Positions 911 through 49,138 are shown, counted from the stretch's first letter. The stretch: DNA of 64,000 bases from Candidatus Aminicenantes bacterium (GCA_030639305.1 DAOWCY010000012.1:954-64953); one strand, 5' to 3'. Notes: a model not told the origin generated them from the letters alone. Translations and numbers: made by a program.

Positions 911-991
911 CAGGACTTGACCCCCGTTATGACTCTATCAGCGTCCCTTAAAAATGTTGCAAAACAAGACTTGACCCCGTTAGGCCGTTAG
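911..991 (+). repeat. Repeat family A (core AAAATGTTGCAAAACAAGACTTGACCCCG(T/A)TAG), one full and one partial copy
   Basis: Direct match to copies at 2801-2892, 4207-4372, 14121-14246 and 18060-18127. Confidence 0.9.
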
Positions 992-996
992 GCTGA

Positions 997-1191
997 AAAA
1001 TTGCCCTGCGAGCGTTTGAGTTGATCGAGGCGATTATGAGGAATCCTTTTTCCGGTATTGGAAAACCGGAACCCCTTAAATTCATGCTTTCCGGCGCCAG
1101 GTCACGCCGCTTAACCCAGGAACACCGGATTGTTTATGTAGTAGGCAGTGATCGAATTGATTTCTTACAATGTCGTTACCATTATAAGTGA
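997..1191 (+). pseudogene. yoeB: 5'-truncated Txe/YoeB toxin copy
   Basis: KIALRAFELIEAIMRNPFSGIGKPEPLKFMLSGARSRRLTQEHRIVY...FLQCRYHYK* aligns with intact 20186-20485; no start codon; W>R change. Confidence 0.9.
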
Positions 1192-1232
1192 GTCCCCACA
1201 AAATGCTGTAAAACAAGACTTAACTCCATTAG
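1192..1232 (+). repeat. Repeat family A, degenerate copy
   Basis: AAATGCTGTAAAACAAGACTTAACTCCATTAG. Confidence 0.75.
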
Positions 1233-1244
1233 GTTCTTAGTCGT

Positions 1245-2381
1245 TTAGGTGAAGACGCGCTGTTTTAAGTATATGGGAAAAAAAGGATCGCTGAATTGAT
1301 ATTTATCATCCATTTTCTCGATGATACCGTTTTCGGTCAGGCTGTTCAGCGCTCTCTGGGTACTGGAACTGGAAGAAAGGTTAAATTTTCTCGCATACTC
1401 CCTGGAGAAGATGTTTTCCCGTTCATGCAGAAGGGCGTGGATTACTTTACGTTGATAATGGGTTAGTTTGTCGAATAGTGTGTGGTAATAATCGTCCTGG
1501 TTATCCAGGATCACGGAAACTGCTTTTTTGACAGTTTCTTCATCTATCGGTTTATCTTCTTCTTGTGCCGCCTGCCAGGTTTGCGAGGCTAAATACTGGT
1601 TATAATAGGGGATATTGCCGGTGTACCGTAATAAAACATCAAATACCCCTTTCTTAAAACGCAGGCTCCCTTTGTTGAACTCCTCCTCCATATGTTCGAT
1701 CATTTCCCCGGGAGAGATTTTATCCAACTTTACCAGTTTCCCGATATTATAGAAAGCCCTTTTTTTATCGGCAAACATGTTTAGCATCAAATGGGTTTTG
1801 CTGCCCATGAATACGTAACCGATGTCCTGGTGAAATTGCAGCACCGAACGGAACTGTTTTTCGATGGTGCTGCCGTTTAAGCTGTTGATTTCCTGGAACT
1901 CATCGAAAACAATGACCCATTTCTCATCCTTTTTTTTGATTTTATCCGGTAGGTCCAGGACGTCCAACAGGGAGTTTTCTTTGGGTATGCTGCTGCCGTA
2001 TGAAAACGAAATTACCGGTTTGCCGTTTTCGTCGATGGTTACGGAGGGTATAATTCCTCGTATATAGTTTTTCAAATTTTTGATCGTTTTTTTTATGGGG
2101 CTGCCGTGGGCTGCCATTATTTTTGCTGCATACAGGTTAATGAAATTTTCCACGGAATAGACCTGGAAAAAATCGAGATATACGGTTTTCACCCCTTCTT
2201 TTTTTAATTCTTCGAGAATTTTTATGACCAGGGAAGTCTTACCGTATCTCCTGGGCGCGTAGAGAATGATATTGTTCCCGTTAAGCAGGTCTTTCCCGGT
2301 TTGCGATATTTCCTGTTTGCGGTTAATAAAATAGCTGCCGCCGACTATCGAACCATATTTAAAAGGATTCATCATATTCAT
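1245..2381 (-). CDS. AAA+/archaeal-type ATPase (ATPase_2-like) with probable C-terminal wHTH
   Basis: Walker A YAPRRYGKTS, Walker B VIVFDEFQEI; 378 aa. Confidence 0.85.
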   Translation of the reverse strand: MNMMNPFKYGSIVGGSYFINRKQEISQTGKDLLNGNNIILYAPRRYGKTSLVIKILEELKKEGVKTVYLDFFQVYSVENFINLYAAKIMAAHGSPIKKTIKNLKNYIRGIIPSVTIDENGKPVISFSYGSSIPKENSLLDVLDLPDKIKKKDEKWVIVFDEFQEINSLNGSTIEKQFRSVLQFHQDIGYVFMGSKTHLMLNMFADKKRAFYNIGKLVKLDKISPGEMIEHMEEEFNKGSLRFKKGVFDVLLRYTGNIPYYNQYLASQTWQAAQEEDKPIDEETVKKAVSVILDNQDDYYHTLFDKLTHYQRKVIHALLHERENIFSREYARKFNLSSSSSTQRALNSLTENGIIEKMDDKYQFSDPFFPIYLKQRVFT

Positions 2382-2595
2382 ACACTTACTGCGTACTTTG
2401 TATCGAGAAAAGATTATGCCATTACATGGCGGTAATGAACAACATGTTGTAGATATTTCAAGTTCCCACCGCCAGGTGGTATTTTTTCAAACTCAGTCTT
2501 GAAAAAACATTATACCATTAAAACACGCCGGTTGACAACCCGGGGTAAGATTTTTCCCACGGCGGATGAGGCGCAAGTATAACCGGTAAAAAAAC

Positions 2596-2634
2596 CCATT
2601 ACGCATTGCTGCGTAACGCACCACTGCGTAATGG
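2596..2634. repeat. Perfect 10-bp inverted repeat enclosing a second palindrome (REP-like hairpin)
   Basis: CCATTACGCA...TGCGTAATGG with internal TGCGTAACGCA. Confidence 0.7.
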
Positions 2635-2682
2635 AAATTTTAGGCGAACAGTCAAAAATATGACCCCGTTAGCTCAATAGCT

Positions 2683-2736
2683 GTAGTAAGTAGTGATCGA
2701 ATTGATTTCTTACAATGTCGTTACCATTATAAATGA
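2683..2736 (+). pseudogene. yoeB: 3'-terminal yoeB fragment
   Basis: VVSSDRIDFLQCRYHYK*, near-identical to 1138-1191; downstream DNA matches 20490-20600. Confidence 0.85.
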
Positions 2737-2800
2737 TTCCCCTAAAAATGGTAGTAGGCGGCATGACCGCTGCATAATGCCCGCGGCCATGCGACGCTCT

Positions 2801-2892
2801 GCTAATCCGGGTCACTGGATCACGCTTTCCGGGATGTCAAGTTCTCATTGCGTTCCTCAAAAATGTTGCAAAACAAGACTTGACCCCGTTAG
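2801..2892 (+). repeat. Repeat family A, long form (CTAATCCGGGTCA...GATGTCAAGTTCT...CAAGACTTGACCCCGTTAG)
   Basis: Imperfect palindrome; homologous to 4207-4290 and 20555-20650. Confidence 0.85.
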
Positions 2893-2986
2893 AAACAAAA
2901 AGCGTCCGGCGTCCGCGCCGCGGGCTTGTTTAAGACTTGACCCTGTTAATATTAATAGGAAAATTACAAAATCTTGTAAAATTGCA

Positions 2987-3014
2987 TTGCATTTTTACAA
3001 CATAAGTGTATAAT
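2987..3014 (+). promoter_or_regulatory. Candidate sigma70 promoter, probably leaderless
   Basis: TTGCAT-N16-TATAAT; ATG 3021 lies 6 nt after the -10 box. Confidence 0.55.
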
Positions 3015-3020
3015 TGCATT

Positions 3021-4202
3021 ATGAAAAACAATTACATACCCCGGCTGCTTCGTGTACCGGGCCGGTCTTTTTTTCTTTTCGGACCAAGAGGTGTCGGGAA
3101 AAGTACATGGCTAAAAAAAAACATGCCGGATGCTTTTTTCTTTGATCTGCTCGATTCTTCGCTTTACCTGGAATTTTCGCGCAATCCGGCGAGCCTCGAG
3201 GCCATGATCGGGAATATTCCCGAAGATTCCTGGATTGTGATCGACGAAATCCAAAAAATTCCTACCCTGTTAGATGAAGTGCATCGCTTGATAGAAAAAA
3301 AAAACTGGCGCTTTGCGTTATGTGGGTCATCTGCCAGGAAGTTACGCCGCGGTGGAGTTAACCTGCTGGGTGGCCGGGCCCTCACCCGCAATCTCGATGC
3401 TTTTTCCTATGCGGAGCTCGGGGCTGCCTTCGATTTGGACTTTTCGCTCCAATGGGGGTTATTACCCTGGGTGCAATTGGAAAAAGAAAACGCGGCGGAT
3501 ATCCTGGATTCCTATGTAAACACCTACATCAAAGAGGAAATAAAGGAAGAAGGCATTATCAGGCGTATACCGCCATTTTTGCGTTTTTTAAAAATTGCCG
3601 GACAAATCAACGGACAATTATTAAATGCTCAAAATATTTCCCGCGAGGCCATGGTGCCGCGAGCCAGCGTAGATGTGTATTTTTCTATCCTGGAAGATAC
3701 GCTTTTAGGTCATTTTCTCCCGGCCTATCGTCCCGGTGCGAAAATTCGGGAGCAAACTCATCCAAAATTTTATTGGTTCGATCCCGGCGCTGCCAGGAGC
3801 GCTGCCGGTTTGCTTTTTGAGCCTATCGACAGGACCTGGAAAGGCACGGCGCTGGAGACGATGATTTACCATGAACTGAGAGTTTTTAATCATACCCGGA
3901 ACAGGAATCGCGATATCTTTTTCTATCGAACAGCAAGTGGTACGGAAATCGATTTTGTAATCGAGACACGGAAACGGCAGCCATCATCCGTCCCTCATTT
4001 AGTCTGCATCGAGGTAAAGCTGGCTGAAAAATGGAAATCTTCATGGGAACGCGCCATGCGTTCTTTGCAGAGCAGTGATAGAATCCAGGTCGATCGCATG
4101 ATAGGGGTTTATACCGGTGCAAGAACATATCACGTCAACGGCCTGGATGTACTGCCGGTGGAGGAGTTTCTTAAAAGACTTTACCGGGGGGATGTTTTTT
4201 AG
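3021..4202 (+). CDS. AAA_14 ATPase with DUF4143 / PD-(D/E)XK C-terminus
   Basis: FGPRGVGKST, IVIDEIQK, FFYRTASGTEIDFVIE...CIEVK; ORF track starts at GTG 3006. Confidence 0.9.
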   Translation: MKNNYIPRLLRVPGRSFFLFGPRGVGKSTWLKKNMPDAFFFDLLDSSLYLEFSRNPASLEAMIGNIPEDSWIVIDEIQKIPTLLDEVHRLIEKKNWRFALCGSSARKLRRGGVNLLGGRALTRNLDAFSYAELGAAFDLDFSLQWGLLPWVQLEKENAADILDSYVNTYIKEEIKEEGIIRRIPPFLRFLKIAGQINGQLLNAQNISREAMVPRASVDVYFSILEDTLLGHFLPAYRPGAKIREQTHPKFYWFDPGAARSAAGLLFEPIDRTWKGTALETMIYHELRVFNHTRNRNRDIFFYRTASGTEIDFVIETRKRQPSSVPHLVCIEVKLAEKWKSSWERAMRSLQSSDRIQVDRMIGVYTGARTYHVNGLDVLPVEEFLKRLYRGDVF

Positions 4203-4206
4203 CCCG

Positions 4207-4372
4207 GTTAATCCGGGTCGCGCCTTCCGGGATGTCAAGTTCTATCAGCGTCCCTTAAAAATGCTGCAAAACAAGACTTGACCCCGATAGCATTCTTAAA
4301 AATGTTGCAAAACAAGACTTGACCCCGATAGCATTCTTAAAAATGTTGCAAAACAAGACTTGACCCCGATAG
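4207..4372 (+). repeat. Repeat family A: long form plus three tandem 41-bp units
   Basis: CATTCTTAAAAATGTTGCAAAACAAGACTTGACCCCGATAG-type units ending at 4290, 4331 and 4372; no spacers. Confidence 0.95.
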
Positions 4373-4412
4373 CATTATAGCATTTTTTTTCCAATTTTTG
4401 ATAGATTTTATG

Positions 4413-4441
4413 TTGCATTTTCTTTCATGGTGATGTATTAT
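4413..4441 (+). promoter_or_regulatory. Candidate sigma70 promoter of the kinase/regulator pair
   Basis: TTGCAT-N17-TATTAT. Confidence 0.5.
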
Positions 4442-4460
4442 TTATTTTTAAGAAGGAAAA

Positions 4461-6839
4461 ATGACTCAAAAAAAGAGGGCTGCAAATAGAACAAAAGACG
4501 AACTCTTGCAGGACGTCACCGAACGCAAGAGGGCTGACGAGGCGTTGCGTACAGGACAGAGTAATGCTCAAAAATACTTAGATATAGTTGAAGTTATGTT
4601 AGCTGCCGTAAATGAAAAAGGGGAGATTACCCTCATCAACCGCAAAGGCTGTAGGGTGCTGGGTTATAAAGAAAGCGAACTATTGGGTAAGAATTGGTTC
4701 GCCGTCTGCCTGCCGGAGCAAATCAGCGCGAATGTGGAGGCTGTTTTCCATGAGTTGTTGGCCGGGAATATCGAGCCGTTGGAATACTCTGAGAACCCGG
4801 TGCTGACGAAGTCCGGTGAAGAAAGAGTCATCGCCTGGCATAATAGTGTGTTGAAGGATGAGACCGGCAGGATCGTAGGTGTCCTGAGTTCGGGTGAGGA
4901 CATCACCGAACGCAGGGAAATGGAAGAAAAACTGCGGGAAAGTGAACAGCGCTATCGTTTGTTGGTAGACAGCGCCGGCGAGGGCATCGGGGTCATCCAG
5001 GGTACCCAGTTTTGCTTTGCCAACCCGAAGCTGTTGGAAATATCCGGCTTCAGCGAAGAAGAGATAATGTCCCGGTCGATTTTTGATTTCGCTTTGCCCG
5101 AAGACCGAGAGATGTTGGCGGAACGCCTTAATAAAAAGTTGGCGGGCGAGGCGTTAGATACCGATTATGTATTCAGGATTATTGCCAAAGATAAAAGTGT
5201 CAGGTGGGTGAGATCCAATTCGGTGACGATAGAGTGGGAAGGCAGACCGGCGACGTTAAACTTCTTTGCCGATGTTAGCGACCGGGTAGCCATGGAAGAG
5301 AAAATCAAGACCGCGGCCCGGGAATGGCATACCACTTTCGATGCCATCAATGACGCCATTTCACTTCTCGACGCCGATAGGAGGGTGCTGCGGGCCAATA
5401 AAACCCTGGCAAGACTCTTAGGAAAATCTTTTGCAGAGATCATCGGTTTTCGCTGTTATGAACTTTTGCAATGTGAACGTGAATCCAGCGGGCCCTGTCC
5501 TTTTGAGCGCATGTTAAAAAGCCGGCGCCGGGAAACTGAGGAACTGCTCCTGCGTGAATGCCGGTGCGAAGGAATCGTAGACCCGATCTTCGCTGAATCG
5601 GGGCACTTGAAGGGAGCCGTCTATATTGTCAAAGATATCGGCGAACGCAGGCGCAGCGAAGAACAGATCAGGCGGCAGAACGAGTTCTTGAACACCGTTA
5701 TGGAATCTTTGACTCACCCCTTTTACATCGTGGACGTCCGGGATTACAGCATCGTAATGGCCAACCCGGCGGCCCGGAAAAGTCTTTCAACAAGAGGCTC
5801 CACCTGTTACCAAATCACCCACGGCCGCGATGAACCCTGTACCGGGTCCCGGCACCCCTGCCCCATCCAGGAGGTGAAAGAGAGCAAGAAACCGGCCAGG
5901 GTAGAACATATCCATACCGGCCGGCAAGGGGGAAAGAGGAATCTTGAGATTCATGCGTATCCAATTTTCGATGAGGCGGGAGAAGTGAAACAGATCATCG
6001 AATATACCATAGATATTAGCGAACGCCGCAAAGCCGAAAAGATGGCCGGGTTACAGCAGGAACAATTACTCCAGGCCGATAAGATGATCAGCCTGGGTAT
6101 CCTGGTATCCGGTGTGGCCCATGAGATCAATAATCCCAACAACTCCATCGCGTTGAATGCCCAGTTTTTGGATAAGGCCTGCCGCAGTGTGCTGCCCATT
6201 TTAGATGAATACTACAGGGAGAACGAATCGCTGCAGGTGGGCGGAATAGAGTACGGGAAATTCCGTGAAAAGGCGCCTTTTTTGTTTTCCGGTATCTTAG
6301 ACAGTTCCAGGCGCATCCAGCATATTGTCCGGGAGTTGAAGTCTTTTTCCCGTAAAGACGCGGCTGATACGCAGGCGCCGGTGGATTTGAATGCGGTGGT
6401 CAAATCCGCCGTCGGTTTGATGAGCAACATTATAAAAAAATCCACCCGCAATTTCCAGGCTACTTACGGCAGGGGACTGCCCCGGGTGCTGGGGGATTTT
6501 CGGAAATTGGAGCAGGTGATTATTAATTTAGTTCAGAATGCCTGCCAGGCCCTTGCCGCCCCGGGGAAAGGGATTTCCTTGTCTACCTGTTATGACCGGG
6601 AGAACCGGCAGGTGGTGGTAATAGTTGAAGATGAAGGCGTGGGCATACCTAAAGAAGACTTGAAGCATATCGCGGATCCCTTTTTTACGACTAAACGCAG
6701 TTCCGGCGGCACCGGCTTAGGGCTGTCGGTGTCGCAGCGCATCGTAAACGACCACAGCGGTACGCTTCATTTTTCTTCTACCCCCGGAGAGGGCACCACG
6801 GTGGAGGTTCGTTTCCCCCTCCTGGAGAAGAAACCATGA
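4461..6839 (+). CDS. Multi-PAS sensor histidine kinase (about 4 PAS/PAC domains, HisKA, HATPase)
   Basis: GVAHEINNPN H-box, NLVQNA N-box, DEGVG, FFTTK, GTGLGL; ATGA overlap with the regulator. Confidence 0.95.
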   Translation: MTQKKRAANRTKDELLQDVTERKRADEALRTGQSNAQKYLDIVEVMLAAVNEKGEITLINRKGCRVLGYKESELLGKNWFAVCLPEQISANVEAVFHELLAGNIEPLEYSENPVLTKSGEERVIAWHNSVLKDETGRIVGVLSSGEDITERREMEEKLRESEQRYRLLVDSAGEGIGVIQGTQFCFANPKLLEISGFSEEEIMSRSIFDFALPEDREMLAERLNKKLAGEALDTDYVFRIIAKDKSVRWVRSNSVTIEWEGRPATLNFFADVSDRVAMEEKIKTAAREWHTTFDAINDAISLLDADRRVLRANKTLARLLGKSFAEIIGFRCYELLQCERESSGPCPFERMLKSRRRETEELLLRECRCEGIVDPIFAESGHLKGAVYIVKDIGERRRSEEQIRRQNEFLNTVMESLTHPFYIVDVRDYSIVMANPAARKSLSTRGSTCYQITHGRDEPCTGSRHPCPIQEVKESKKPARVEHIHTGRQGGKRNLEIHAYPIFDEAGEVKQIIEYTIDISERRKAEKMAGLQQEQLLQADKMISLGILVSGVAHEINNPNNSIALNAQFLDKACRSVLPILDEYYRENESLQVGGIEYGKFREKAPFLFSGILDSSRRIQHIVRELKSFSRKDAADTQAPVDLNAVVKSAVGLMSNIIKKSTRNFQATYGRGLPRVLGDFRKLEQVIINLVQNACQALAAPGKGISLSTCYDRENRQVVVIVEDEGVGIPKEDLKHIADPFFTTKRSSGGTGLGLSVSQRIVNDHSGTLHFSSTPGEGTTVEVRFPLLEKKP

Positions 6840-8251
6840 CTGAATTAAAATTTCCCGGTTGCCCGGTTTTGATCGTGGACGATGAGGAGAATACCCTGCG
6901 CAGTTTCGAGATCACTTTGAACTCCGCAAAGATCGACAATATCGTGCTCTGCCGGGACAGCCGCCGCGTACTGCCTCTTTTGCAAGAACAGGAATTCGAG
7001 CTGCTGCTGTTGGACCTGACCATGCCCCATATCGGCGGTGAAGAACTGCTGCCCCGGGTAGTCCATGATTTTCCCCACATCCCGGTGATTATCATTACCG
7101 GCAATATGGAGATCGACATCGCGGTGAAATGCATGCAGGCCGGGGCTTTCGACTACATGGTCAAACCGGTGGAAGAGAAACGGCTGATCTCCGGCGTGAG
7201 CCGGGCCATCGAACGCAACCGCCTGCAGCGGGAAAACCTGACCTTGAGAAAACAACTGCTCGGCGGCGAATTGTCCCATCCCGAAACCTTTGCCCCTATC
7301 GTTACCTGCAGCCCGGCCATGATTTCTATATTCAAATACATCGAAGTGATTGCCGCCAGTCCCGAACCGGTGCTTTTAACCGGCGAGACCGGGGTAGGCA
7401 AAGAGTTGATAGCCCGGGCCATCCACGAAGCCGGAGGCCGGAAAGGGAAACTGGTTTCCACAAATGTGGCCGGGCTGGACGACACCATGTTTTCCGATAC
7501 CCTGTTCGGCCATAAAAAAGGGGCCTTTACCGATGCCCGCGAATCCCGCGGCGGTTTGATCGAACAGGCTTCCGGCGGCACCCTGTTTTTAGATGAGATC
7601 GGGGATTTGAGTCCCGCCTCCCAGGTAAAATTGCTCAGGCTGCTCCAGGAGCGGGAATACTTCCCCTTAGGTTCCGATATCGCCCGCCACAGCGACGCCC
7701 GCATCGTGGCCGCCACCAACCGGGAATTAGCGGCATCTTTAGAAGCAGGAAAGTTTCGCAAGGACCTATATTACCGGCTGGAAGTCCATCATATCTATAT
7801 CCCGCCCCTGCGCCGCCGCCGGGAAGATATCGTGCCTTTAGTTGCTCATTTCTTAGAAGAGGCGGGCAAAGCCCTTAATAAAAAAAAGCCTACCCCTCCG
7901 AAAGAGCTTTTTGTTTTGTTGGACAGCTATCCTTTTCCCGGCAATGTGCGTGAAATCCGCGCCATGGTATTCGATGCGGTAAGCACCCATACTGCCGGGA
8001 TACTTTCCATGGCAAGCTTTAAAAAGACCATCGCACAAAAAAGGAAAACCCTGTGCCCGGTGATAGAGCCGGCGGCAGGGCAGCCTGGAGAACCTATCGT
8101 TTTGCAATTTTCCAGGCCGCTGCCTACGCTGGCTAAGGCTGAGGGGATGCTGGTTAAGGAAGCGTTGAAACAGGCAAAAGACAACCGGTCGATAGCGGCC
8201 CAACTGTTGGGTATTTCGCGCCAGACCCTGATCCGCAAGCTCAAAAAGTAA
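6836..8251 (+). CDS. Sigma54-dependent response regulator (NtrC family)
   Basis: Receiver LLDLTMP, GETGVGKE, GAFTDA loop, LFLDEIG, RKDLYYRL, FPGNVRE, Fis-type HTH. Confidence 0.97.
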   Translation: MTELKFPGCPVLIVDDEENTLRSFEITLNSAKIDNIVLCRDSRRVLPLLQEQEFELLLLDLTMPHIGGEELLPRVVHDFPHIPVIIITGNMEIDIAVKCMQAGAFDYMVKPVEEKRLISGVSRAIERNRLQRENLTLRKQLLGGELSHPETFAPIVTCSPAMISIFKYIEVIAASPEPVLLTGETGVGKELIARAIHEAGGRKGKLVSTNVAGLDDTMFSDTLFGHKKGAFTDARESRGGLIEQASGGTLFLDEIGDLSPASQVKLLRLLQEREYFPLGSDIARHSDARIVAATNRELAASLEAGKFRKDLYYRLEVHHIYIPPLRRRREDIVPLVAHFLEEAGKALNKKKPTPPKELFVLLDSYPFPGNVREIRAMVFDAVSTHTAGILSMASFKKTIAQKRKTLCPVIEPAAGQPGEPIVLQFSRPLPTLAKAEGMLVKEALKQAKDNRSIAAQLLGISRQTLIRKLKK

Positions 8252-8288
8252 TTTCCCCTATTCTCATACCTGTTGCATTTCGGTACAC

Positions 8289-8305
8289 TGTCACAATTTG
8301 ATACA
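8289..8305. promoter_or_regulatory. Candidate enhancer (UAS) site 1
   Basis: TGTCACAATTTGATACA = TGT-N11-ACA. Confidence 0.45.
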
Positions 8306-8325
8306 ATGCCCCGCAGTGTCCACAC

Positions 8326-8345
8326 GGGGGGCTTTCCCCCTTTTT
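8326..8345 (+). terminator. Rho-independent terminator after the regulator
   Basis: GGGGG(G)-CTTT-CCCCC followed by TTTTT. Confidence 0.65.
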
Positions 8346-8366
8346 AACGAAAGATAAAAGGAAAGG

Positions 8367-8383
8367 TGTTGTAAAATGTAACA
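8367..8383. promoter_or_regulatory. Candidate enhancer (UAS) site 2
   Basis: TGTTGTAAAATGTAACA = TGT-N11-ACA inside a GGTGTT..AACACC inverted repeat. Confidence 0.5.
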
Positions 8384-8484
8384 CCCTTTTCGATTTCTCT
8401 CTTTACTTGAAAAATCACTCCCGAAAAATCGAAGCAACGCACTGCTGCTGCTTTCCAGGGTTATCCCGGCGTCTTTTAGTTTAC

Positions 8485-8501
8485 CCGGCAAGAGAATTGC
8501 T
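8485..8501 (+). promoter_or_regulatory. Sigma54 -24/-12 promoter
   Basis: CCGGCAAGAGAATTGCT: GG at 8487-88, exactly 10 nt, then GC at 8499-8500. Confidence 0.7.
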
Positions 8502-8514
8502 AATATAAAGCGAT

Positions 8515-10025: not shown

Positions 10026-10051
10026 GTTTTTAGAAATTTAGGAGGATTAAC

Positions 10052-10522: not shown

Positions 10523-10531
10523 AGAATGCAC

Positions 10532-10598: not shown

Positions 10599-10625
10599 GG
10601 CGGGTAGTTAACATTTGATTTTAAA

Positions 10626-11951: not shown

Positions 11952-11959
11952 GCAGCGTC

Positions 11960-12766: not shown

Positions 12767-12795
12767 GGAAAACCATTACAAATAGGAGGTTTGAT

Positions 12796-13833: not shown

Positions 13834-14102
13834 AAGGGCAGTCGGTCGAGGGGCCGCAGCCGATAAAAGAGGAAGAAATGATTTCTTCGCCATCGAAAAA
13901 TCTCCACAGGGAAGAAAGGTTTTGCCTCGTGGCTCATGAGTTGATCGATATTTTCACTATTATCTGCGGGTATAGCGAATTATCCCTGGAAACGCTAACC
14001 GAAGGCACAAAAGAGAAGAAGAATTTGAAAAAGGTCCTGGCCGCGGCGGACCGTGGCATAGAGATGATCGGGAATTATTTTAGCGCATCCGAACGTTGTT
14101 AA
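13830..14102 (+). CDS. Standalone HisKA-like (phosphoacceptor/dimerisation) mini-protein
   Basis: VAHELIDIFTIICGYSELSLE...LKKVLAAADRG resembles an H-box helix pair; no ATPase domain; ATGA overlap with the kinase. Confidence 0.6.
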   Translation: MKGQSVEGPQPIKEEEMISSPSKNLHREERFCLVAHELIDIFTIICGYSELSLETLTEGTKEKKNLKKVLAAADRGIEMIGNYFSASERC

Positions 14103-14120
14103 TATGAGTGCCTTCTAATT

Positions 14121-14246
14121 CAAAAAATGCTGCAAAACAAGACTTGACCCCGATAGTTTTTTAAAAATGTTGCAAAACAAGACTTGACCCCGTTAATTTT
14201 TTAACATTCCTCAAAAATGTTGCAAAACAAGACTTGACCCCGTTAA
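14121..14246 (+). repeat. Repeat family A, three near-tandem copies
   Basis: GACTTGACCC at 14141, 14181 and 14231. Confidence 0.95.
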
Positions 14247-14354
14247 TTTTACCGCCTATGTTAAAAAAAATGAAGCCTCATGAAGAGTGGCTTCCAGACT
14301 GGATGTTGGAGATGGCGGCATGAAAAAAAATGGGGTGACGACAGTTAAAAATCC

Positions 14355-14383
14355 TTGACTCTTTTTCCTGGCAGTGCTATAAT
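14355..14383 (+). promoter_or_regulatory. Strong sigma70 promoter with extended -10
   Basis: TTGACT-N17-TATAAT preceded by TGC. Confidence 0.75.
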
Positions 14384-14447
14384 GAGTTCGTTAAACATAA
14401 AAAATTATACCTTTATTATTTGTTAATAAAATAGTTAAGGAAAGGAT

Positions 14448-15377
14448 GTGAATTTGAACCGTAGAAATTATGAACTTATAACTACAGCAGTACTCCTTGC
14501 AGCCGGTACGGGGAGTCGCCTGTATCCTTTGACGAAGAACATGCCTAAATGTCTTACAATGGTTAACGGGACGTCCATACTTGAACGACTTGTCATCTGT
14601 TTGAATCAGCAAGGCTTCAAGCGCCTTGTTGTGGTCACAGGGTACCTGGAAAATAGTATTCGGGAGTATCTAAAAACGCGGGCTGGCGGTATGACAATCG
14701 ATTATATTTTCAGTCCGCTTTATAAGACGACCAATAACATATATTCACTATGGATGGCCCGTGAAATTATTAATGAGCCGTTTTTGTTGGTCGAAAGCGA
14801 TCTTGTTTTTGACGAATCCCTGTTGGATGACATGCGTGATCCTGACAGAATTGCCATTGCAAGCATGGAGGCGTGGATGAACGGTTCCACCGTAACAGTC
14901 AATCAATCTCAACAGGTTAAGAGATTCCAAATCGGTATTACCGGGCCTTTGGATGAGATCAGGTACAAGACTGTTAATATTTACAGTTTTTCGCTCTCTT
15001 CATGGCATGCTATTGTAGAAAGACTTGACGAGTACATTTCAGACGGCAGAGTAAACTGCTATTATGAAACCGTATTTGAGGAAATGGTGGCTGACGGCAG
15101 CCTCTGTCTTCAAACAGTCTCTTTTGATGCTAACCCCTGGTATGAAATAGACACAATTGCGGATCTGGAAGAAGCTGAGAGACTATTTCCAGCAGATAAA
15201 CTTGAAACAATAATTCCTTACTCGGAAACGGAAACGGTTACTCGTTCACTTCCCGGTTTAAGAGCATCCCCTCAGTCCAATTTTTTATTTATGAAGCCGA
15301 TTCATGATCCTAATATTAAAGAAAATAAAGTATCACCAAAAGAAAAATCAAAAAGAAGTGGATATGGCGCATTATAA
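14448..15377 (+). CDS. Phosphocholine/phosphoethanolamine cytidylyltransferase family (LicC-like NTP transferase)
   Basis: LAAGTGSRLYPLTKNMPKCL, YKTTNNIYSLW, LVESDLVF, WYEIDTIADL; GTG start. Confidence 0.85.
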   Translation: MNLNRRNYELITTAVLLAAGTGSRLYPLTKNMPKCLTMVNGTSILERLVICLNQQGFKRLVVVTGYLENSIREYLKTRAGGMTIDYIFSPLYKTTNNIYSLWMAREIINEPFLLVESDLVFDESLLDDMRDPDRIAIASMEAWMNGSTVTVNQSQQVKRFQIGITGPLDEIRYKTVNIYSFSLSSWHAIVERLDEYISDGRVNCYYETVFEEMVADGSLCLQTVSFDANPWYEIDTIADLEEAERLFPADKLETIIPYSETETVTRSLPGLRASPQSNFLFMKPIHDPNIKENKVSPKEKSKRSGYGAL

Positions 15378-16485
15378 TTATAAGACTCAAACGGAAAAAT
15401 ACGAATTCATCTCCGGGCAGCATGGTGGTTACTATCGTCATGGTTTTATAGACCATGCTTATCTTTATAATCTCTATTTCCCTCCGGAGGCGATTTTTAC
15501 AAGATTTAAAAATCAAATCCATGACATTGTCCTGAACTACCCGGTTGCACAGGATGCTCTTGCCGCTCTTATCGGTAATCTAATCCATCAACCTGCTGAA
15601 AGAATAGTTGTAGGAAACGGCGCTTCCGAACTCATCAAAATATTATGCGGTCACATATCCGGCAAGTTAATCGTTCCGGTGCCTTCTTTTAATGAATATG
15701 CGAATGCAGCGGCGATAGGCCGGGTCGTTGAATTTCCTCTTGAATTTCCATCCTTCCATCTTGATGTGGATAAGTTCGCTGCCGAAGCGATCAGGGTTGA
15801 AGCTGATGTGGCTGTTGTGGTAACGCCTAATAATCCAACATCTATGCTGGTCCCCAGGTCCGCCCTAATATGTCTTGCACAAAAACTTGCAAATCATGAC
15901 TGTATGCTGATCGTCGATGAATCCTTCATGGATTTTGTGCAAAACCCGGAGCAGACAACCCTGGAACATGAAATCGAACGTTACCCCAATATGGCAATCT
16001 TTAAAAGCATGAGCAAAGCCTATGGTATCTGCGGTCTCAGGATCGGCTATATGCTTACAGCAAATTCAGCATTTGCCGAAACTGTACGAAAAGGCGTGCA
16101 TATCTGGAATATTAACGGATTTGCCGAAGAGTTTTTGCGGCTTTTGCCCGGTTACAGACAGGAGTTTGCCGAAAGCTGTAAACAGGTACTGATCGATAGG
16201 GACAATCTGTATGAAAACCTGTGCTCTGTCCAGGGGATGACCGTTTACAAACCCGATGCAAACTTTGTTTTCTGCCGCCTTCCCGATTATGCACAAAGTG
16301 CCCCTGAAGTAACGCGGCGATTGTTTATTGAGCATAACATGTATATAAAACACTGCCGAGACAAAACTCTCCCGGATTCCGATCGTTATATTCGTATTGC
16401 CAGCCGTACCGAAACAGAGAATTGCAATTTAGTTGAAGCATTGACAAATATCATTGACTTGAAAAAAGTGGAAATAAAAAAATAA
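15364..16485 (+). CDS. PLP-dependent class I/II enzyme (CobD/HisC-like; possible phospho-amino-acid decarboxylase)
   Basis: GNGASELI, TPNNPT, VDESFMDF, KSMSKAYGICGLRIGY. Confidence 0.85.
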   Translation: MAHYNYKTQTEKYEFISGQHGGYYRHGFIDHAYLYNLYFPPEAIFTRFKNQIHDIVLNYPVAQDALAALIGNLIHQPAERIVVGNGASELIKILCGHISGKLIVPVPSFNEYANAAAIGRVVEFPLEFPSFHLDVDKFAAEAIRVEADVAVVVTPNNPTSMLVPRSALICLAQKLANHDCMLIVDESFMDFVQNPEQTTLEHEIERYPNMAIFKSMSKAYGICGLRIGYMLTANSAFAETVRKGVHIWNINGFAEEFLRLLPGYRQEFAESCKQVLIDRDNLYENLCSVQGMTVYKPDANFVFCRLPDYAQSAPEVTRRLFIEHNMYIKHCRDKTLPDSDRYIRIASRTETENCNLVEALTNIIDLKKVEIKK

Positions 16486-17141
16486 TGAAAGATTCACAAT
16501 CTCAACAATCACAGCAGACCGGAATGCTTACTTTTGCCGGAGATCTTCCAAATATCTGTTCGCTTGCAGGGCTGTTATGTGCGCTCCTTGGTATATACTA
16601 CGCTATTCTGGGCAACTTTCCTGCTGCAATAATCGGAATGATCTGGGCTGTATTTTTTGACTGGGGTGACGGAATCATTGCCCGTCGGATGAAGGGGCGA
16701 ACTGAAGAATATCGTGCTTTCGGGGGACAGCTTGACTCGTTGATAGATATTGTAAGTTTTGGAATTCTTCCTGCTGTTCTTCTCTTGAGCTATGGAGAAT
16801 TCAGTCCCTGGTTCCTGCCGGGAGCGTTCGTGATAGTCGCGGTCAGTGCAATACGGTTGAGTTATTTCAATGTATTCGGCCTGATCGATGATTCGACTTA
16901 CATGGGATTGGCGCTTGATAATAATGTCATCATTCTTGCTTTTGTTTTCCTGTTTGACGGCTTTCTCAGTAAGACGATTTTTTCAGTCATTATATATTCG
17001 ATGTGTATGGTTATGGCTGCCTTTAATTTAGCACCGGTTCGAACACCCAAGTTTACGGGAAGGTGGTTTTATGTTCTTTTGTTTTATACCCTGGGATTGA
17101 CAGCTATCTATGGCTGGATACTGTGGAACAAATATCAATAA
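16485..17141 (+). CDS. CDP-alcohol phosphatidyltransferase
   Basis: DWGDGIIARR...GGQLDSLID signature; multiple TM segments. Confidence 0.9.
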   Translation: MKDSQSQQSQQTGMLTFAGDLPNICSLAGLLCALLGIYYAILGNFPAAIIGMIWAVFFDWGDGIIARRMKGRTEEYRAFGGQLDSLIDIVSFGILPAVLLLSYGEFSPWFLPGAFVIVAVSAIRLSYFNVFGLIDDSTYMGLALDNNVIILAFVFLFDGFLSKTIFSVIIYSMCMVMAAFNLAPVRTPKFTGRWFYVLLFYTLGLTAIYGWILWNKYQ

Positions 17142-17160
17142 AATTGAAGCAATTATTAAT

Positions 17161-18048
17161 ATGAAAAAAGGGAAAAAGTATATACCTGGCTATCAACCGG
17201 TGAATCACCACGACCCCACCGGACAACAGATCGACGATGCAGCCGTCAAGCGCTATTTTGATAGTGCAAGGATTGGCTCAGGAGCCAATGTCAGTATTCT
17301 AGCCCATGAGCACAATCTCCCGGCCAGTGCGGCCAGATATCGGCTGCACAAAGAGATACGAACTATCAGTGATTGGCTCAACGCGGTGTATGACTCGGGG
17401 CGAGTGCTTGATGTTGGCTGTGGTGCAGGGACCTGGACAGAGATATTCGCCAGGCGCTATAAGACTGTCATAGGAATCGAGCAAAGTAGCCTGATGTTGA
17501 AGGCTGCCAGGGAAAGGGTGGCTCGTCTGCCCAATGTTAAGATACTCGAAGGTGACGGTCGACATGACCTTCCGGAAGGCGCCTTCGACATGATCTTCCT
17601 GGGTGGCCTGTGTATGTATCTGAATGACCTCGACGTTATGGCGCTGCTCCACTCTTTGAAAAACCGTCTTATTGAAGGGGGGTCGATTATCCTCCGCGAA
17701 TCGACTGTACATCAGGGTGTATCCCTATCACGGGGTGAGTATCAGGCAGTCTACCGAAGTGTAAACCTGTACCGTCAATTGTTCGATGGCGCGGGTTCCT
17801 TTCGTGTGGAAGTGCGGCGGAACTTCGGTTACACCAATTTGGTGACTGCAGAGGAGTTGGTTAATCTGCGTCGCAGGTGGCTGCCATTCTTACCCGGGGA
17901 TTCTACCACGCTTGGCTCCTTGACGTGGTGGGTGCTCAGAGGGACCGCGCCGATAAGCTTCTGGGCTCTGCCGCGGCTGCTCTCCCAACTCAACATCCCG
18001 TGGCCCGGATTACAAAATCACTTCTTCAGGCTGCGCCTTGTTGATTAA
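17161..18048 (+). CDS. Class I SAM-dependent methyltransferase
   Basis: VLDVGCGAG motif I, GIEQS, FDMIFLGGLCMYL. Confidence 0.9.
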   Translation: MKKGKKYIPGYQPVNHHDPTGQQIDDAAVKRYFDSARIGSGANVSILAHEHNLPASAARYRLHKEIRTISDWLNAVYDSGRVLDVGCGAGTWTEIFARRYKTVIGIEQSSLMLKAARERVARLPNVKILEGDGRHDLPEGAFDMIFLGGLCMYLNDLDVMALLHSLKNRLIEGGSIILRESTVHQGVSLSRGEYQAVYRSVNLYRQLFDGAGSFRVEVRRNFGYTNLVTAEELVNLRRRWLPFLPGDSTTLGSLTWWVLRGTAPISFWALPRLLSQLNIPWPGLQNHFFRLRLVD

Positions 18049-18059
18049 TAAGTACCTGT

Positions 18060-18127
18060 GGGGTCAAGTCTTGTTTTAACACATTTTGGTAACTCAAATG
18101 TTGCAAAACAAGACTTGACCCCGATAG
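18060..18127. repeat. Repeat family A, inverted doublet
   Basis: GGGGTCAAGTCTTGTTTTAACACATTT...AAATGTTGCAAAACAAGACTTGACCCC. Confidence 0.9.
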
Positions 18128-18137
18128 GTATATTAAT

Positions 18138-18166
18138 TTTACTTTTGCCCCCTTTTGGTATATAAT
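18138..18166 (+). promoter_or_regulatory. Candidate sigma70 promoter
   Basis: TTTACT-N17-TATAAT. Confidence 0.55.
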
Positions 18167-18176
18167 CGACAATAAT

Positions 18177-19778
18177 ATGAAAGAGGATAAAATGGAACGC
18201 TTTTTTAATACAGCAGGGCCGGTAAACCGCAAGGACCATTACTGCATAGAGCCTTTAACCCGGTTCGACCTGGACGAAATCCTATCCCTGATCAACCAAA
18301 AAAAATATTTCGTGCTCCACGCTCCCAGGCAAACGGGTAAGACTTCCTATATGCTGGCCCTGATGGATTATATCAATAAACGGGGCGCCTATAAATGCCT
18401 GTATGTCAACGTAGAGTCCGCCCAGGCTGCCAGGGGAAATGTGGAAAAAGGCATACGCGCTATCCTGGATGTAACCGCGGGTATGGCCGCCGACTATCTC
18501 GACGACACTTACCTGCTGGATAACTGGGAACAAATTTTCAATAAAAGCGGTGAATATTCGGCCTTTTTTACCGCACTAAAAAATTGGTCGAAACAAAGCT
18601 CCAAACCCCAGGTGCTGTTTATCGACGAGATCGATGCCCTGGTAGGAGATACCTTGATCTCCGTACTGCGGCAATTGCGCAGCGGTTATACTATGCGCCC
18701 GGAATTGTTTCCCCAGAGTGTCGTTTTATGCGGCGTTCGAGATGTGCGGGACTACCGTATCTATTCGGAAAAAGACAAAGACATCATAACCGGCGGCAGC
18801 GCTTTTAACGTCAAGGCCGAATCTTTGCGAATGGGTAGTTTTACCGCCGCGGAAATAAATACGCTGTATAACCAACATACAAAGGAAACAGGCCAGGAGT
18901 TTGATGATGCTGTATTTCCCCTGGTCTGGGAGTTGACCGAAGGACAGCCCTGGTTGGTCAACGCCCTGGGATATGAAGTTTGCTTTAAAATGAAAGAGGG
19001 ACGTGACCGGGCCAAAACCGTTACCGCGGATAAAATCGAACAGGCCAAAGAGAATCTCATCATGCGGCGGGAAACCCACTTAGACCAACTTGCCGATAAG
19101 TTAAAAGAAAAACGGGTGATCCGGGTACTGGAACCCATCCTTTCCGGCTTCGGGGATGTGGAAAAAATCCCCACCGACGATATCGATTATGCCGTAGATT
19201 TAGGATTGATAAAAAAAGAACGCCAGATCAGGATTTCCAACAAGATATACAAAGAAGTAATACCCAGGGAATTGACCTACAGCGCCCAGTTGACCATTCT
19301 ACAGGAAGCCCCCTGGTATATGAATGAAGACGGCAGCCTGGATATGGATAAGCTTTTGACATCGTACCAGGATTTTTTCCGGAAACACTTCGAAAGTTGG
19401 GTGGACGGTTTCGATTATGCGGAAGCGGGGCCGCAATTGCTGCTGCAAGCTTTTTTACAGCGTATCGTCAACAGCGGCGGCCGGGTGGAAAGGGAGTACG
19501 GCCTGGGCAGGCAGCGTACCGATTTGCTGTTGACCTGGCCCCACCGGGAGGGCGTTCAACAAGTCGTGCTGGAATTGAAAATCCGCCACCTGCATTACGG
19601 CCTGGATACGGTTATCGAAGAGGGCCTGGAACAAACCTGGGGATATATGGATAAATGCGGCGCCCATGAGGGCTGCCTACTGGTTTTCGATAGATCTGAT
19701 ACGTTAACCTGGGAGGAGAAAATATTCAAAAAAGAAGAGATATATAATAATGTAAAGATCGGTGTTTACGGTATGTAA
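18177..19778 (+). CDS. AAA-like ATPase with C-terminal PD-(D/E)XK domain
   Basis: FFNTAGP, HAPRQTGKT, LFIDEIDAL, REYGLGRQRTDLL...VLELK; alternative start 18192. Confidence 0.85.
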   Translation: MKEDKMERFFNTAGPVNRKDHYCIEPLTRFDLDEILSLINQKKYFVLHAPRQTGKTSYMLALMDYINKRGAYKCLYVNVESAQAARGNVEKGIRAILDVTAGMAADYLDDTYLLDNWEQIFNKSGEYSAFFTALKNWSKQSSKPQVLFIDEIDALVGDTLISVLRQLRSGYTMRPELFPQSVVLCGVRDVRDYRIYSEKDKDIITGGSAFNVKAESLRMGSFTAAEINTLYNQHTKETGQEFDDAVFPLVWELTEGQPWLVNALGYEVCFKMKEGRDRAKTVTADKIEQAKENLIMRRETHLDQLADKLKEKRVIRVLEPILSGFGDVEKIPTDDIDYAVDLGLIKKERQIRISNKIYKEVIPRELTYSAQLTILQEAPWYMNEDGSLDMDKLLTSYQDFFRKHFESWVDGFDYAEAGPQLLLQAFLQRIVNSGGRVEREYGLGRQRTDLLLTWPHREGVQQVVLELKIRHLHYGLDTVIEEGLEQTWGYMDKCGAHEGCLLVFDRSDTLTWEEKIFKKEEIYNNVKIGVYGM

Positions 19779-19846
19779 CACTACTTGCCTGGGGAGGTAG
19801 TAAGGGGCGACCCCCTTAGGTTCTAAAGAAAAAAAATTTAGAATTG

Positions 19847-19886
19847 TTGACGAAACAGTCTAAAACATGTACAATATTCCTGTACG
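19847..19886 (+). promoter_or_regulatory. Promoter and probable operator of yefM-yoeB
   Basis: TTGACG-N17-TACAAT; TGTACA/TGTACG hexamers overlap the -10, as in known yefM operators. Confidence 0.65.
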
Positions 19887-19914
19887 TGATTCGCAATTAT
19901 AAAAGGAGGCGCCG

Positions 19915-20193
19915 ATGTTGATACAAACAACTTACACCGATGCAAGGGCACAGTTTGCCAAACTTTGGGATGAAGTGACCAACAACCGGGAAGTGGTTAT
20001 TATAAAAAGAAGGGGAGCCGAAGATGTAGCGCTTATTTCAGCTTCTGAATTAACCGGGCTGCTGGAAACCAGTCATTTATTAAGGTCACCCAAAAATGCG
20101 GAACGTCTATTGGCAGCCTTTGAGCGAGCCGCGAAAAAAAAAGGAATGCCCCAAACGATAGAAGAGTTGAAAAAAGAGGTCGGGGTTGAGTAA
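19915..20193 (+). CDS. yefM: Phd/YefM antitoxin
   Basis: TYTDARAQFAKLWDEV...LETSHLLRSPKNAERL. Confidence 0.95.
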   Translation: MLIQTTYTDARAQFAKLWDEVTNNREVVIIKRRGAEDVALISASELTGLLETSHLLRSPKNAERLLAAFERAAKKKGMPQTIEELKKEVGVE

Positions 20194-20485
20194 AAAAAAG
20201 GCAAAAGATGCTGTAAAACAAAATATCGGGAAAGAGGCGGTATTCCAACCGGAATTCCGGGAAGACCTGCGCTATTGGGTGAAAACCAACCGGAAAGTCG
20301 CCCTTCGAGTCTTTGAGTTGATCGAGGCGATAATGAGGAATCCTTTTACCGGCATCGGCAAACCGGAACCTCTTAAATTCATGCTTTCCGGCGCCTGGTC
20401 GCGCCGCTTAACCCAGGAGCACCGGATTGTTTATGTGGTAAGTAAAAATCGAATCGATTTCTTACAATGCCGTTATCATTATTAA
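20186..20485 (+). CDS. yoeB: Txe/YoeB toxin
   Basis: GIGKPEPLK...WSRRLTQEHRIVY...QCRYHY; TTG start. Confidence 0.95.
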   Translation: MSKKKAKDAVKQNIGKEAVFQPEFREDLRYWVKTNRKVALRVFELIEAIMRNPFTGIGKPEPLKFMLSGAWSRRLTQEHRIVYVVSKNRIDFLQCRYHY

Positions 20486-20554
20486 TAATAATTCCCCACA
20501 AAATGGTTGGCGGCGCATGACTGCTGCATCCTGCCCGCAGCCATGTACCGCCCT

Positions 20555-20717
20555 GCTAATCCGGGTCGCCGGATCACGCCTTTCGGGTTGTCAGATTTCC
20601 GTCACCATTACTGGAAAATGTTAACATGCAAGACCTGACCCCCGGGGTTCGTTCTAACCCGGGTTACCGGACCGCGCCTTACCGAATGTCAAATGTTGAG
20701 ACGCGGCCCCGTTAGAT
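20555..20717 (+). repeat. Repeat family A variants (two diverged long forms)
   Basis: GCTAATCCGGGTC...CAAGACCTGACCCC, then TTCTAACCCGGG...GGCCCCGTTAGAT. Confidence 0.75.
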
Positions 20718-20851
20718 TCGGGGGGATGTTTTTTAGCTCTATTTTGTTTTTTCAGCAAACTTTCACGAATTATTATTAAAAAGGCATTGACAAATACACA
20801 ATTTTATATTATTAAATAAGCGAAGCGAAGATAAAGAAACGAGGTAAAAAT

Positions 20852-21112
20852 ATGTCTAAATCGGTAACAGTAAGCGCGAGGATCGACGTAAGGCTGAAAG
20901 ATGAGGTAGATTCTATTTTTAAATCCATGGGATTATCGGCATCCGAAGCTATCACCATGTTTTATAATATGGTCAGATCTAAAAAAGGGCTTCCTTTCGA
21001 CGAGAGGGTTCCCAACAAAGAAACCGTCCAGGTTTTTAATGATACCGATGCAGGCAAAAACTTGAATTATTGCGAGAGTTTTGACCAGATGTTCGAGGAA
21101 CTGGATATTTAA
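20852..21112 (+). CDS. dinJ: RelB/DinJ antitoxin
   Basis: VSARIDVRLKDEVDSIFKSMGLSASEAITMF...GLPF...PNKET. Confidence 0.92.
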   Translation: MSKSVTVSARIDVRLKDEVDSIFKSMGLSASEAITMFYNMVRSKKGLPFDERVPNKETVQVFNDTDAGKNLNYCESFDQMFEELDI

Positions 21113-21378
21113 TGCTGGAGCCGGTTTATACAAACAGGTTCAAAAAGGACTTGAAAAGAGTGAAAAGGCGAAAAAAAGATACCGGGAAGTTAAAAGCAGT
21201 TATGCTCGAATTAGGAAGGGATATGGGTTTGGATCCTCAATATCAAGATCACAAATTAGGAGGCCGGTGGGCAGGCAGAAGGGAGTGTCACATTGAACCG
21301 GATTGGCTGTTGATCTATAAAATAGATGTTCAGTATATTATCTTCGAAAGAACCGGTTCGCATGCCGATCTTTTTTAG
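21112..21378 (+). CDS. yafQ: YafQ-family mRNA interferase
   Basis: DHKLGG...RECHIEPDWLLIY...RTGSHADLF. Confidence 0.95.
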   Translation: MLEPVYTNRFKKDLKRVKRRKKDTGKLKAVMLELGRDMGLDPQYQDHKLGGRWAGRRECHIEPDWLLIYKIDVQYIIFERTGSHADLF

Positions 21379-21437
21379 AGTGCGCTGGATGGTGAGAAAC
21401 AATACCGGGAAATAAATTAGTCTATCCTATTTTCTTC

Positions 21438-21471
21438 CACAAATTTGCACATTCCAACGCACCGGGGCCGG
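21438..21471 (-). repeat. Repeat family C (CCGGTGCGTTGGAATGTGCAAATTTGTG)
   Basis: Exact reverse complement of 42723-42756. Confidence 0.9.
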
Positions 21472-21476
21472 TCGGC

Positions 21477-21504
21477 AAAATGTTAACAAACAAGACCTGA
21501 CCCC
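21477..21504 (+). repeat. Repeat family A variant
   Basis: AAAATGTTAACAAACAAGACCTGACCCC. Confidence 0.8.
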
Positions 21505-49107: not shown

Positions 49108-49138
49108 AAAAAATGCGGCAAGACAAGACCTGAAACCC
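49108..49138 (+). repeat. Repeat family A, degenerate
   Basis: AAAATGCGGCAAGACAAGACCTGAAACCC. Confidence 0.6.

Follow-up and report, generated by a model that had tools for sequence, protein, structure and literature searches.

RAYT-like genes flanked by terminal inverted repeats (TIRs), and not by the hairpins of repetitive extragenic palindromes (REPs), were described as TIRtrons, and their products as TIRYTs, by Di Nocera, De Gregorio and Rocco (2013; PMC3733652). According to the available parts of that paper, the sequence GGGGWSAS is common to many TIRs, some TIR families are moderately abundant and occur as single, dimeric or grouped units, and one sharply defined TIRYT group comes from Acidobacteria. 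In the available parts of Quentin et al. (2018; PMC6006769), most TIRYTs are placed in TnpA-Y1 subclass 2.1, with C-terminal tails resembling helix-turn-helix (HTH) or DnaA-C domains. Here we analysed a repeat family (hereafter family A) found in a stretch of 64,000 nucleotides of Candidatus Aminicenantes bacterium (GCA_030639305.1 DAOWCY010000012.1:954-64953; hereafter the window), i.e. contig C112 of a 7.59-Mb genome in 427 contigs. Family A is very probably the 28-nt TIR of a TIRtron, a small element resembling an insertion sequence (IS) and encoding only a TIRYT. Judged from its sequence, this TIRYT is a RAYT-like Y1/HUH tyrosine transposase, probably of TnpA-Y1 subclass 2.1, with a putative C-terminal HTH-like tail. 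The element type has been known since 2013, and it is neither a gene-cassette system nor a new kind of system.

The family had been noticed in a reading of the window made from the sequence alone (the sequence-only reading), which gave it as a short motif followed by G(T/A)TAG and interpreted it as a set of cassette boundaries. The 19-mer taken from that reading (CAAGACTTGACCCCGWTAG) gave nine matches with up to 2 mismatches, all on the + strand, for 0.00 expected in 100 dinucleotide-preserving shuffles, and the family is therefore real. Alignment of all genomic copies led us to redraw the motif. The conserved unit (AAAATGTTGCAAAACAAGACYTGACCCC, consensus AAAATGTtgcAAaaCAAGACYTGACCCC) is 28 nt long, extends further on the 5′ side than the motif as written and ends at CCCC, immediately 3′ of which the information content falls to background; the G(T/A)TAG that follows is a trait of one subfamily only. 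The core CAAGNCTTG, read directly from the sequence, is a 9-bp dyad.

The genome-wide scan proposed by the sequence-only reading was run with the 14-nt core and at most 1 substitution, and retrieved 87 occurrences as compared with 1 for the reversed control. Only 12 of the 87 lie within open reading frame (ORF) proxies, although these cover 83% of the contigs concerned, i.e. 86% of the copies are outside ORFs. Thirteen of the 87 are located on C112, a roughly 50-fold local enrichment. The copies form 71 clusters (57 solo, 6 tandem and 8 inverted), the inverted ones being mostly of a fixed 63-bp design (28 + 7 + 28 nt) with GGGG/CCCC outward. Besides the doublet of the window, six further 63-bp doublets were found (C25, C87, C143, C196, C252 and C415), together with related 70-bp ones on C163 and C370. 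At least six subfamilies have only the outer 14 nt in common and diverge over the inner 14 nt. Right ends also occur as fragments of different lengths (C95:27845, 76 nt; C45, 67 nt; C330, 110 nt), all of which terminate exactly at CCCC. Thirty random ORFs among the flanking genes, inspected by eye with no baseline, look like housekeeping, defence-like and toxin-antitoxin genes mixed together. The same genome contains other short repeat families in hundreds of copies, and many contigs end in them (e.g. the first 60-80 nt of C78 and C281).

A Y1 transposase gene ending in the motif, for which the sequence-only reading had advised a search, was found in this genome and in its relatives. On contig C6, a segment of 676 bp (3183-3858) carries as sole gene a Y1/HUH transposase, located between perfect inverted 28-nt units (3183-3210 and 3831-3858). 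The protein matches Pfam Y1_Tnp (E 8e-15) and NCBIfam REP_Tyr_transpos at 77.2 bits, so that the cutoff of the curated RAYT model NCBIfam NF047646 (80 bits) is not reached. A second element, whose core is of the T variant, is present in several copies, at which the assembly breaks. It was recovered as three left ends with the N-terminus MARQLRIEFPGALYHVTHRGNEKK (C380, C277 and C155) and six right ends with the C-terminus ...ISRIIKRQEMNQKKS* (C182, C401, C95 twice, C330 and C45), and additional sequence of its C-terminal coding region stands at the end of contig C35. Besides the C6 copy, one element is thus represented by no fewer than 3 left and 6 right ends. On C155, an N-terminal stump of the transposase of about 32 aa adjoins its TIR. 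The element edges (slash) read ..CCT/GGGG on the left and CCCC/ATT.. on the right, with no target duplication. None of the 12 other Y1 or RAYT-like genes of the genome has family A flanks. The window itself is devoid of a transposase gene, and no transposase-derived sequence was matched beside its copies on C112.

The reading frame of the repeat links the window copies to the gene. The sequence-only reading had pointed to a frame KMLQNKT*, as resembling the 3′ end of IS200/RAYT-like HUH transposase genes, and this proved apt: the transposase ORF runs into its right end in this very frame. The element frame AAA AAG TCA TAA AAC AAG ACT TGA corresponds to AAA ATG TTG CAA AAC AAG ACT TGA in the window, and the autonomous element reads ...EMNQKKS*, with TAA where window copies carry CAA.

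The pairing of repeat and gene is conserved among relatives, some of which belong to different genera. A same-genus genome (G001) encodes an intact 295-aa ortholog (Pfam Y1_Tnp, E 9e-12) within a 944-bp motif-bounded unit, its stop codon lying inside the right TIR; at locus L005, the inverted units are at 1092-1119 and 2008-2035. The core also flanks the orthologs in G016 (where it forms doublets), G003 and UBA6072, and a 40%-identical protein in L068, which has a same-strand array on the 3′ side of its transposase gene. Multiple units on the 3′ side, noted with C6:3183-3300, were also seen in L026 and L068. Overall, inverted units bracket two genes here and their orthologs in no fewer than five further genomes, with element lengths of roughly 0.7-0.95 kb. 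Distant homologs in Acidobacteria, Nitrospirota and Brocadia have related inverted repeats (GGTGTCAGGTCTTAC, GTGTCAGGTCTTGAC and TGGGGTCACACCTTG), and additional 63-bp doublets were found in G001 and G016. Both TIRYT and repeat are patchily distributed among family members, and the repeat follows the transposase: among 41 related genomes, a TIRYT match (E ~2e-57 or better) was retrieved in all 6 genomes with at least 5 copies, and in only 2 of the 35 with fewer than 5 (Fisher p = 6e-6). A scan of species-representative genomes confirmed 395 TIRYT relatives.

Alignment of 12 homologs showed that the HUH motif (H62-Y63-H64) is invariant and that the Tyr of Y-x3-NP is nearly so. The best solved relative of the 12-sequence profile is the E. 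coli TnpA-REP (4ER8, E 0.012); phmmer with the single TIRYT protein gave no match in PDB. Homologs share a conserved C-terminal tail, ...KEIGEYLGxHYxxISR. Residues 252-287 of the G001 ortholog gave sub-threshold HTH matches (HTH_38, E 0.0018; Sigma70_r4, E 0.0032), the 12-sequence profile touches sigma-factor region 4 at E 0.12, and no Bac_DnaA_C match was obtained.

Compared with described TIRtrons, family A shows the same overall layout: a Y1/HUH gene of about 290-300 aa with a putative HTH-like tail, long inverted repeats starting GGGGTCAG or GGGGTCAA, and end repeats that are also dispersed, moderately abundant and single, dimeric or grouped. The C variant GGGGTCAG fits GGGGWSAS exactly; the T variant GGGGTCAA, the most frequent one in the window, has A in place of S at position 8. 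The overlap of the transposase stop codon with the repeat corresponds to the '3′ov' layout, as given in the available parts of PMC3733652. Acidobacteria frequently carry members of the class. What differs here is the host lineage (Aminicenantes, new for these elements), the multi-copy element, the prominent same-strand tandem arrays, the existence of at least six subfamilies sharing the outer 14 nt only, and an orientation bias relative to GC skew (see below), of which the available parts of PMC3733652 and PMC6006769 make no mention.

REP/REPIN-RAYT systems (Nunvar 2010, PMC2817692; Bertels and Rainey 2011, PMC3116915) resemble family A in that short extragenic repeats flank one specific HUH transposase in inverted orientation, doublets form long hairpins, and singles, doublets and clusters coexist in both. 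In contrast to REPs, the solo unit of family A starts with GGGG, is not palindromic and has neither a GTAG nor a CGTC tag, and its transposase scores just below the RAYT cutoff, is twice as long and is multi-copy instead of single-copy and domesticated. A classical REP/RAYT system was ruled out on the basis of the non-palindromic untagged unit, the score of 77.2 versus 80 bits and the multi-copy, patchily distributed element, which is unlike a single-copy transposase of vertical inheritance. With IS200/IS605 elements (IS608, ISDra2), the TIRYT shares the Y1/HUH fold family (Pfam Y1_Tnp) and the lack of target duplication; those elements differ in having subterminal hairpins, unlike one another, as ends, and neither an HTH tail nor dispersed end-only families. 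Membership of this group was excluded by the perfect 28-nt inverted-repeat ends. Integron attC arrays resemble the window in their same-strand repeats between co-oriented genes and in the presence of toxin-antitoxin genes among the 'cassettes'. Family A differs from them by the absence of integrase and attI, by 28-nt units without attC fold, by its genome-wide spread and by inter-unit blocks of up to 9.7 kb containing several operons. A CRISPR-like or integron-like array was rejected (no unique spacers, no attC fold, no integrase), as was a dif/Xer-type 28-bp site, prompted by the length and the ATGTTAA stretch, in which no dyad of two binding arms could be seen by eye. At the gathering threshold, Rfam recognised one tRNA only in the window and no known RNA family for the repeat.

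Features of the window are listed in Table 1. With the 14-nt core and up to 3 substitutions, 15 copies in 8 clusters were counted between 897 and 21504; the repeat announced by the sequence-only reading was thus confirmed, its counts (more than 15 copies, about 9 clusters) being slightly too high. Other elements of that description stood: 14 of the 15 copies are on the + strand; single units, two triple tandem arrays and one inverted doublet were recovered by the core scan, the arrays also by Tandem Repeats Finder; and not a single copy was detected by the core scan in the 22-38 kb segment. All copies of the window are intergenic. As single-stranded DNA, the doublet folds strongly (-23.6 kcal/mol, z -7.6), whereas a solo unit does not (-1.8 kcal/mol, z +0.27), and solo units and arrays are no more structured than shuffles. 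Because they form no hairpin, solo units are not terminators. The doublet is a gene-less miniature form of the element. More generally, the window holds gene-less end derivatives, i.e. singles, same-strand arrays, the 63-bp doublet and decayed relics.

Table 1. Family A units (TIRs) and an associated pseudogene in the window.
Feature	Coordinates	Strand	Remarks
TIR copy with a different inner half (CCCGGACAGCCTGA + CAGGACTTGACCCC)	897..924	+	Core scan; inner-half variant recurs on C45, C273, C297, C349, C408 and C411
Canonical 28-nt TIR unit AAAATGTTGCAAAACAAGACTTGACCCC	951..978	+	19-mer and core scans
5′-truncated YoeB toxin pseudogene	997..1190	+	997-1205 is 86% identical to 20294-20505
Decayed TIR unit (AAAATGCTGTAAAACAAGACTTAACTCC)	1200..1227	+	Core scan
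Canonical TIR unit in a divergent-promoter spacer	2860..2887	+	Preceded by a truncated inverted arm, GGGATGTCAAGTTCT
Decayed copy, outer core only (TAAGACTTGACCCT)	2917..2944	+	Core scan
Tandem array of three TIR units (4258-4285, 4299-4326, 4340-4367)	4258..4367	+	Period 41 nt, 98% identical; Tandem Repeats Finder, 4254-4376: period 41, 3.0 copies, 98% matches
Tandem array of three TIR units (14124-14151, 14164-14191, 14214-14241)	14124..14241	+	Spacing 40 and 50 nt; 87% identity to array at 4257-4371; Tandem Repeats Finder, 14123-14216: period 40; whole array spans 14123-14246
63-bp inverted doublet of 28-nt units, 18060-18087 (-) and 18095-18122 (+)	18060..18122	.	7-nt spacer, GGGG/CCCC outward
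TIR unit, variant AAAATGTTAACATGCAAGACCTGACCCC	20615..20642	+	Identical to transposase element ends on contig C6
TIR unit (AAAATGTTAACAAACAAGACCTGACCCC)	21477..21504	+	Between YafQ toxin gene and nucleotidyltransferase gene
Decayed relic (AAAATGCGGCAAGACAAGACCTGAAACC), beyond the reported span	49110..49137	+	Core scan

The sequence-only reading went further and had the units serve a trans-acting HUH enzyme in capturing, shuffling or deleting the genes beside them. This model, in which the units are recombination boundaries comparable with integron cassettes or ISCR-type capture, is in our view very improbable. The contrast that it drew between accessory and core DNA holds, the 22.2-38 kb segment being collinear in five related genomes and 2.3-22.2 kb showing only scattered single-gene or paralog matches. 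Several features would suit such a capture: the roughly 50-fold enrichment falls in the non-syntenic region, the two triple arrays flank a 9.7-kb signalling block as direct repeats, and elsewhere direct repeats of 'flank + TIR' type (49-80 nt) bracket a single gene or toxin-antitoxin pair (an HEPN-nucleotidyltransferase pair at C73:3985/5030; C95:27845/28795; C415:15924/16789). Likewise, the truncated YoeB pseudogene begins 19 nt after the 951-978 unit and runs into the decayed 1200-1227 copy, the intact gene being located at 20186-20485 within an intact Phd-YoeB pair (19915-20485). This remaining evidence is suggestive only. Presence/absence breakpoints did not map to the motif, contrary to what the cassette model expected: homology with the same-genus genome ends at about 14340 (95 nt past the array, at a conserved promoter), at about 22300 (800 nt and one gene past the final copy) and at about 8.8 kb, a site devoid of copies, this comparison being of low power since the same-genus genome has about 70% DNA identity and is fragmented. 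In the same genome, the counterpart of 5.2-8.8 kb (histidine kinase and sigma-54 regulator genes) is free of units. The 18177-19778 ATPase gene is one of five paralogs with a common promoter of about 45 nt; in each of the other four, another repeat family occupies the position of the doublet. No inter-repeat block was found to recur elsewhere as a unit-bounded segment, only single-gene paralogs; no recombinase was identified among the ORFs of 1-22 kb; and solo units are without attC-like fold. The part of the sequence-only reading that stands is therefore the identification of HUH-element ends, inverted units bracketing Y1 genes, and the part that finds no support is cassette capture, shuffling or deletion. 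Lying at the edges of gene units is to be expected of any extragenic repeat. We read the 'punctuation' as what usually results when genes turn over fast in a region and extragenic repeats persist only between them.

A more credible, if still doubtful, possibility is that the copies are not independently mobile and represent debris of internally deleted full-length TIRtrons, arrays being made by slippage. The variable right-end fragments stopping at CCCC (C95:27845, C45 and C330), the C155 stump by its TIR, the 98% identity of the array at 4254-4376, as slippage predicts, and the decayed YoeB genes of the region are in line with it. The seven doublets of fixed design (28+7+28) at unrelated sites, with more in G001 and G016, are hard to obtain in this way, as are the unequal 40- and 50-nt spacers of the array at 14124-14241, and the inner-half variant of the window matches neither transposase element, no transposase remnants being found on C112. 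Debris probably accounts for some copies and not for the family. It is highly improbable that the units are sites of a host function (HTH operators, transcription or RNA signals) only incidentally linked to the transposase. Their strictly intergenic position and a 9-bp dyad that could suit a dimeric HTH protein would agree with such a role, and the TIRYT itself carries an HTH-like tail; against this, the units have no preferred orientation or distance relative to genes, their patchy distribution tracks the transposase, and the presence of tandem arrays and decayed copies is characteristic of selfish repeats. Scarcely any credit can be given to the idea that they are the inverted repeats of a classical DDE-type IS accompanied by miniature inverted-repeat transposable elements (MITEs). 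Inverted 28-bp ends starting with GGGG, as the ends of the Tn3 family do, and MITE-like 63-bp doublets call it to mind, but every complete unit between inverted copies (five genomes) encodes only a Y1/HUH protein, and no target-site duplication is present at the element ends.

Several side observations concern the same region. The 533-aa AAA_35-type ATPase family (window 18128-19778) comprises five paralogs with 74-83% nucleotide identity and a promoter TTTTAC...N..TATAAT, the others being at C28:9456-11128, C419:6541-8077, C376:1081-2675 and C310:13669-15273. At L105 (G001:C69), a different GC-rich repeat occupies about 500-600, where the window has a TIR array, upstream of the conserved nucleotidyltransferase promoter (homolog of window 14448). 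A second decayed YoeB (2682-2735) is reduced to its last ~50 nt. Between the YoeB 3′ flank and the TIR lies a segment of about 110 nt (2751-2860; ~20506-20614) with AAAATG on both sides, which starts at 2751 with a GTAG-tagged GC-rich hairpin, the tag being GTTG at 20506. This segment has only 3 copies in the genome. It is absent from a third YoeB relic (1190-1227), in which ...CCCCACAAAATG continues without interruption into the remainder of the TIR; the difference stems either from an insertion into the inner TIR edge or from a microhomology deletion.

Orientation of the units was further compared with that of their surroundings. In 43 of 59 non-inverted clusters (p = 6e-4) and, counted by contig, in 29 of 41 contigs (p = 0.012), the strand that reads ...CCCC-3′ is the one locally richer in G, figures to be read with two cautions: replication direction is only noisily reflected by local GC skew (15-20 kb), and clusters sharing a contig are not independent. 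Orientation showed no bias with respect to adjacent genes (23:27 and 33:26), nor to the gene strand of the region (30 of 56), and in discordant cases it tracks skew 11:0. The + strand of the window is G-rich throughout 1-44 kb, which fits the location of all seven of its non-inverted clusters on this strand. This association with GC skew, and not with gene direction, hints at single-strand, replication-coupled insertion. IS608 and ISDra2 insert into the lagging-strand template, and the orientation bias observed here fits such a behaviour.

The imperfection of the skew proxy is one of the points that weigh against assigning family A to a TIRtron. An intact full-length TIRYT was not found among the contigs of the genome, from which only terminal pieces were recovered: the C6 copy is without its C-terminal tail, and the multi-copy element is without residues 32-197. 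The commonest variant of the window (inner half AAAATGTTGCAAAA) matches the TIR of neither transposase element (AAAATGTTAACATG and AAAAAGTCATAAAA). A single TIR is unfit for classical two-ended cut-and-paste, so that solo copies and same-strand arrays call for a one-ended or decay explanation. Neither insertion polymorphism nor a circular junction was seen, and metagenome contigs scanned for the 18060-18122 doublet matched neither an empty nor a filled site, a double negative that carries no information. Finally, the available parts of PMC3733652 and PMC6006769 contain no biochemical test of any TIRYT.

If family A consists of TIRtron ends, as we favour, its history in the window could be as follows. 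TIRYT copies located elsewhere in the genome would act in trans on the window ends. The HUH domain would recognise and cut the outer 14 nt (CAAGACYTGACCCC, common to at least six subfamilies), presumably directly after CCCC, and the HTH tail may read the variable inner 14 nt. Insertion, with no duplication of the target, would take place at the replication fork in single-stranded DNA. The derivatives have built up in intergenic spacers of a non-syntenic, rapidly evolving region, in which toxin-antitoxin and orphan-ATPase genes abound. 'Punctuation' of gene units would then be a by-product, because insertions are tolerated there.

A bolder form of this scheme, which we put forward tentatively and consider unlikely, takes the single TIR as the active unit: the TIRYT would nick the strand that is accessible as lagging-strand template, immediately 3′ of CCCC, and a one-ended, replication-coupled copy-in would follow beside an existing end. 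Such a process would explain the same-strand arrays (also found 3′ of transposase genes in distant genomes), the skew bias, the variable end fragments stopping at CCCC and the occasional 'flank + TIR' direct repeats. If true, the family would sometimes carry neighbouring DNA, as IS91/ISCR elements do.

Other repeats of the window were also noted. A 71-nt GC-rich, hairpin-prone tandem unit is present at 52686-52885 (2.8 copies, 90% matches), flanked by short repeats of AAACTTTTGATA type at 52650-52683 and 55760-55795. Iteron-like 21-nt repeats (GTGAACATTTTCATTTTACAC, ~6 copies) lie at 58663-58787, where an AT-rich stretch begins; the GC content is 36-39% at 58 to 64 kb, as compared with ~45% elsewhere.

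A conspicuous repeat of this genome is hereby named and tied to its enzyme, so that TIRtron end, and neither cassette site nor unknown motif, is the appropriate annotation for its copies. TIRYTs occur widely, and this genome provides a rich natural data set on them, with subfamilies, doublets, same-strand arrays and an orientation bias, from which concrete substrates can be drawn to test the class biochemically for the first time.

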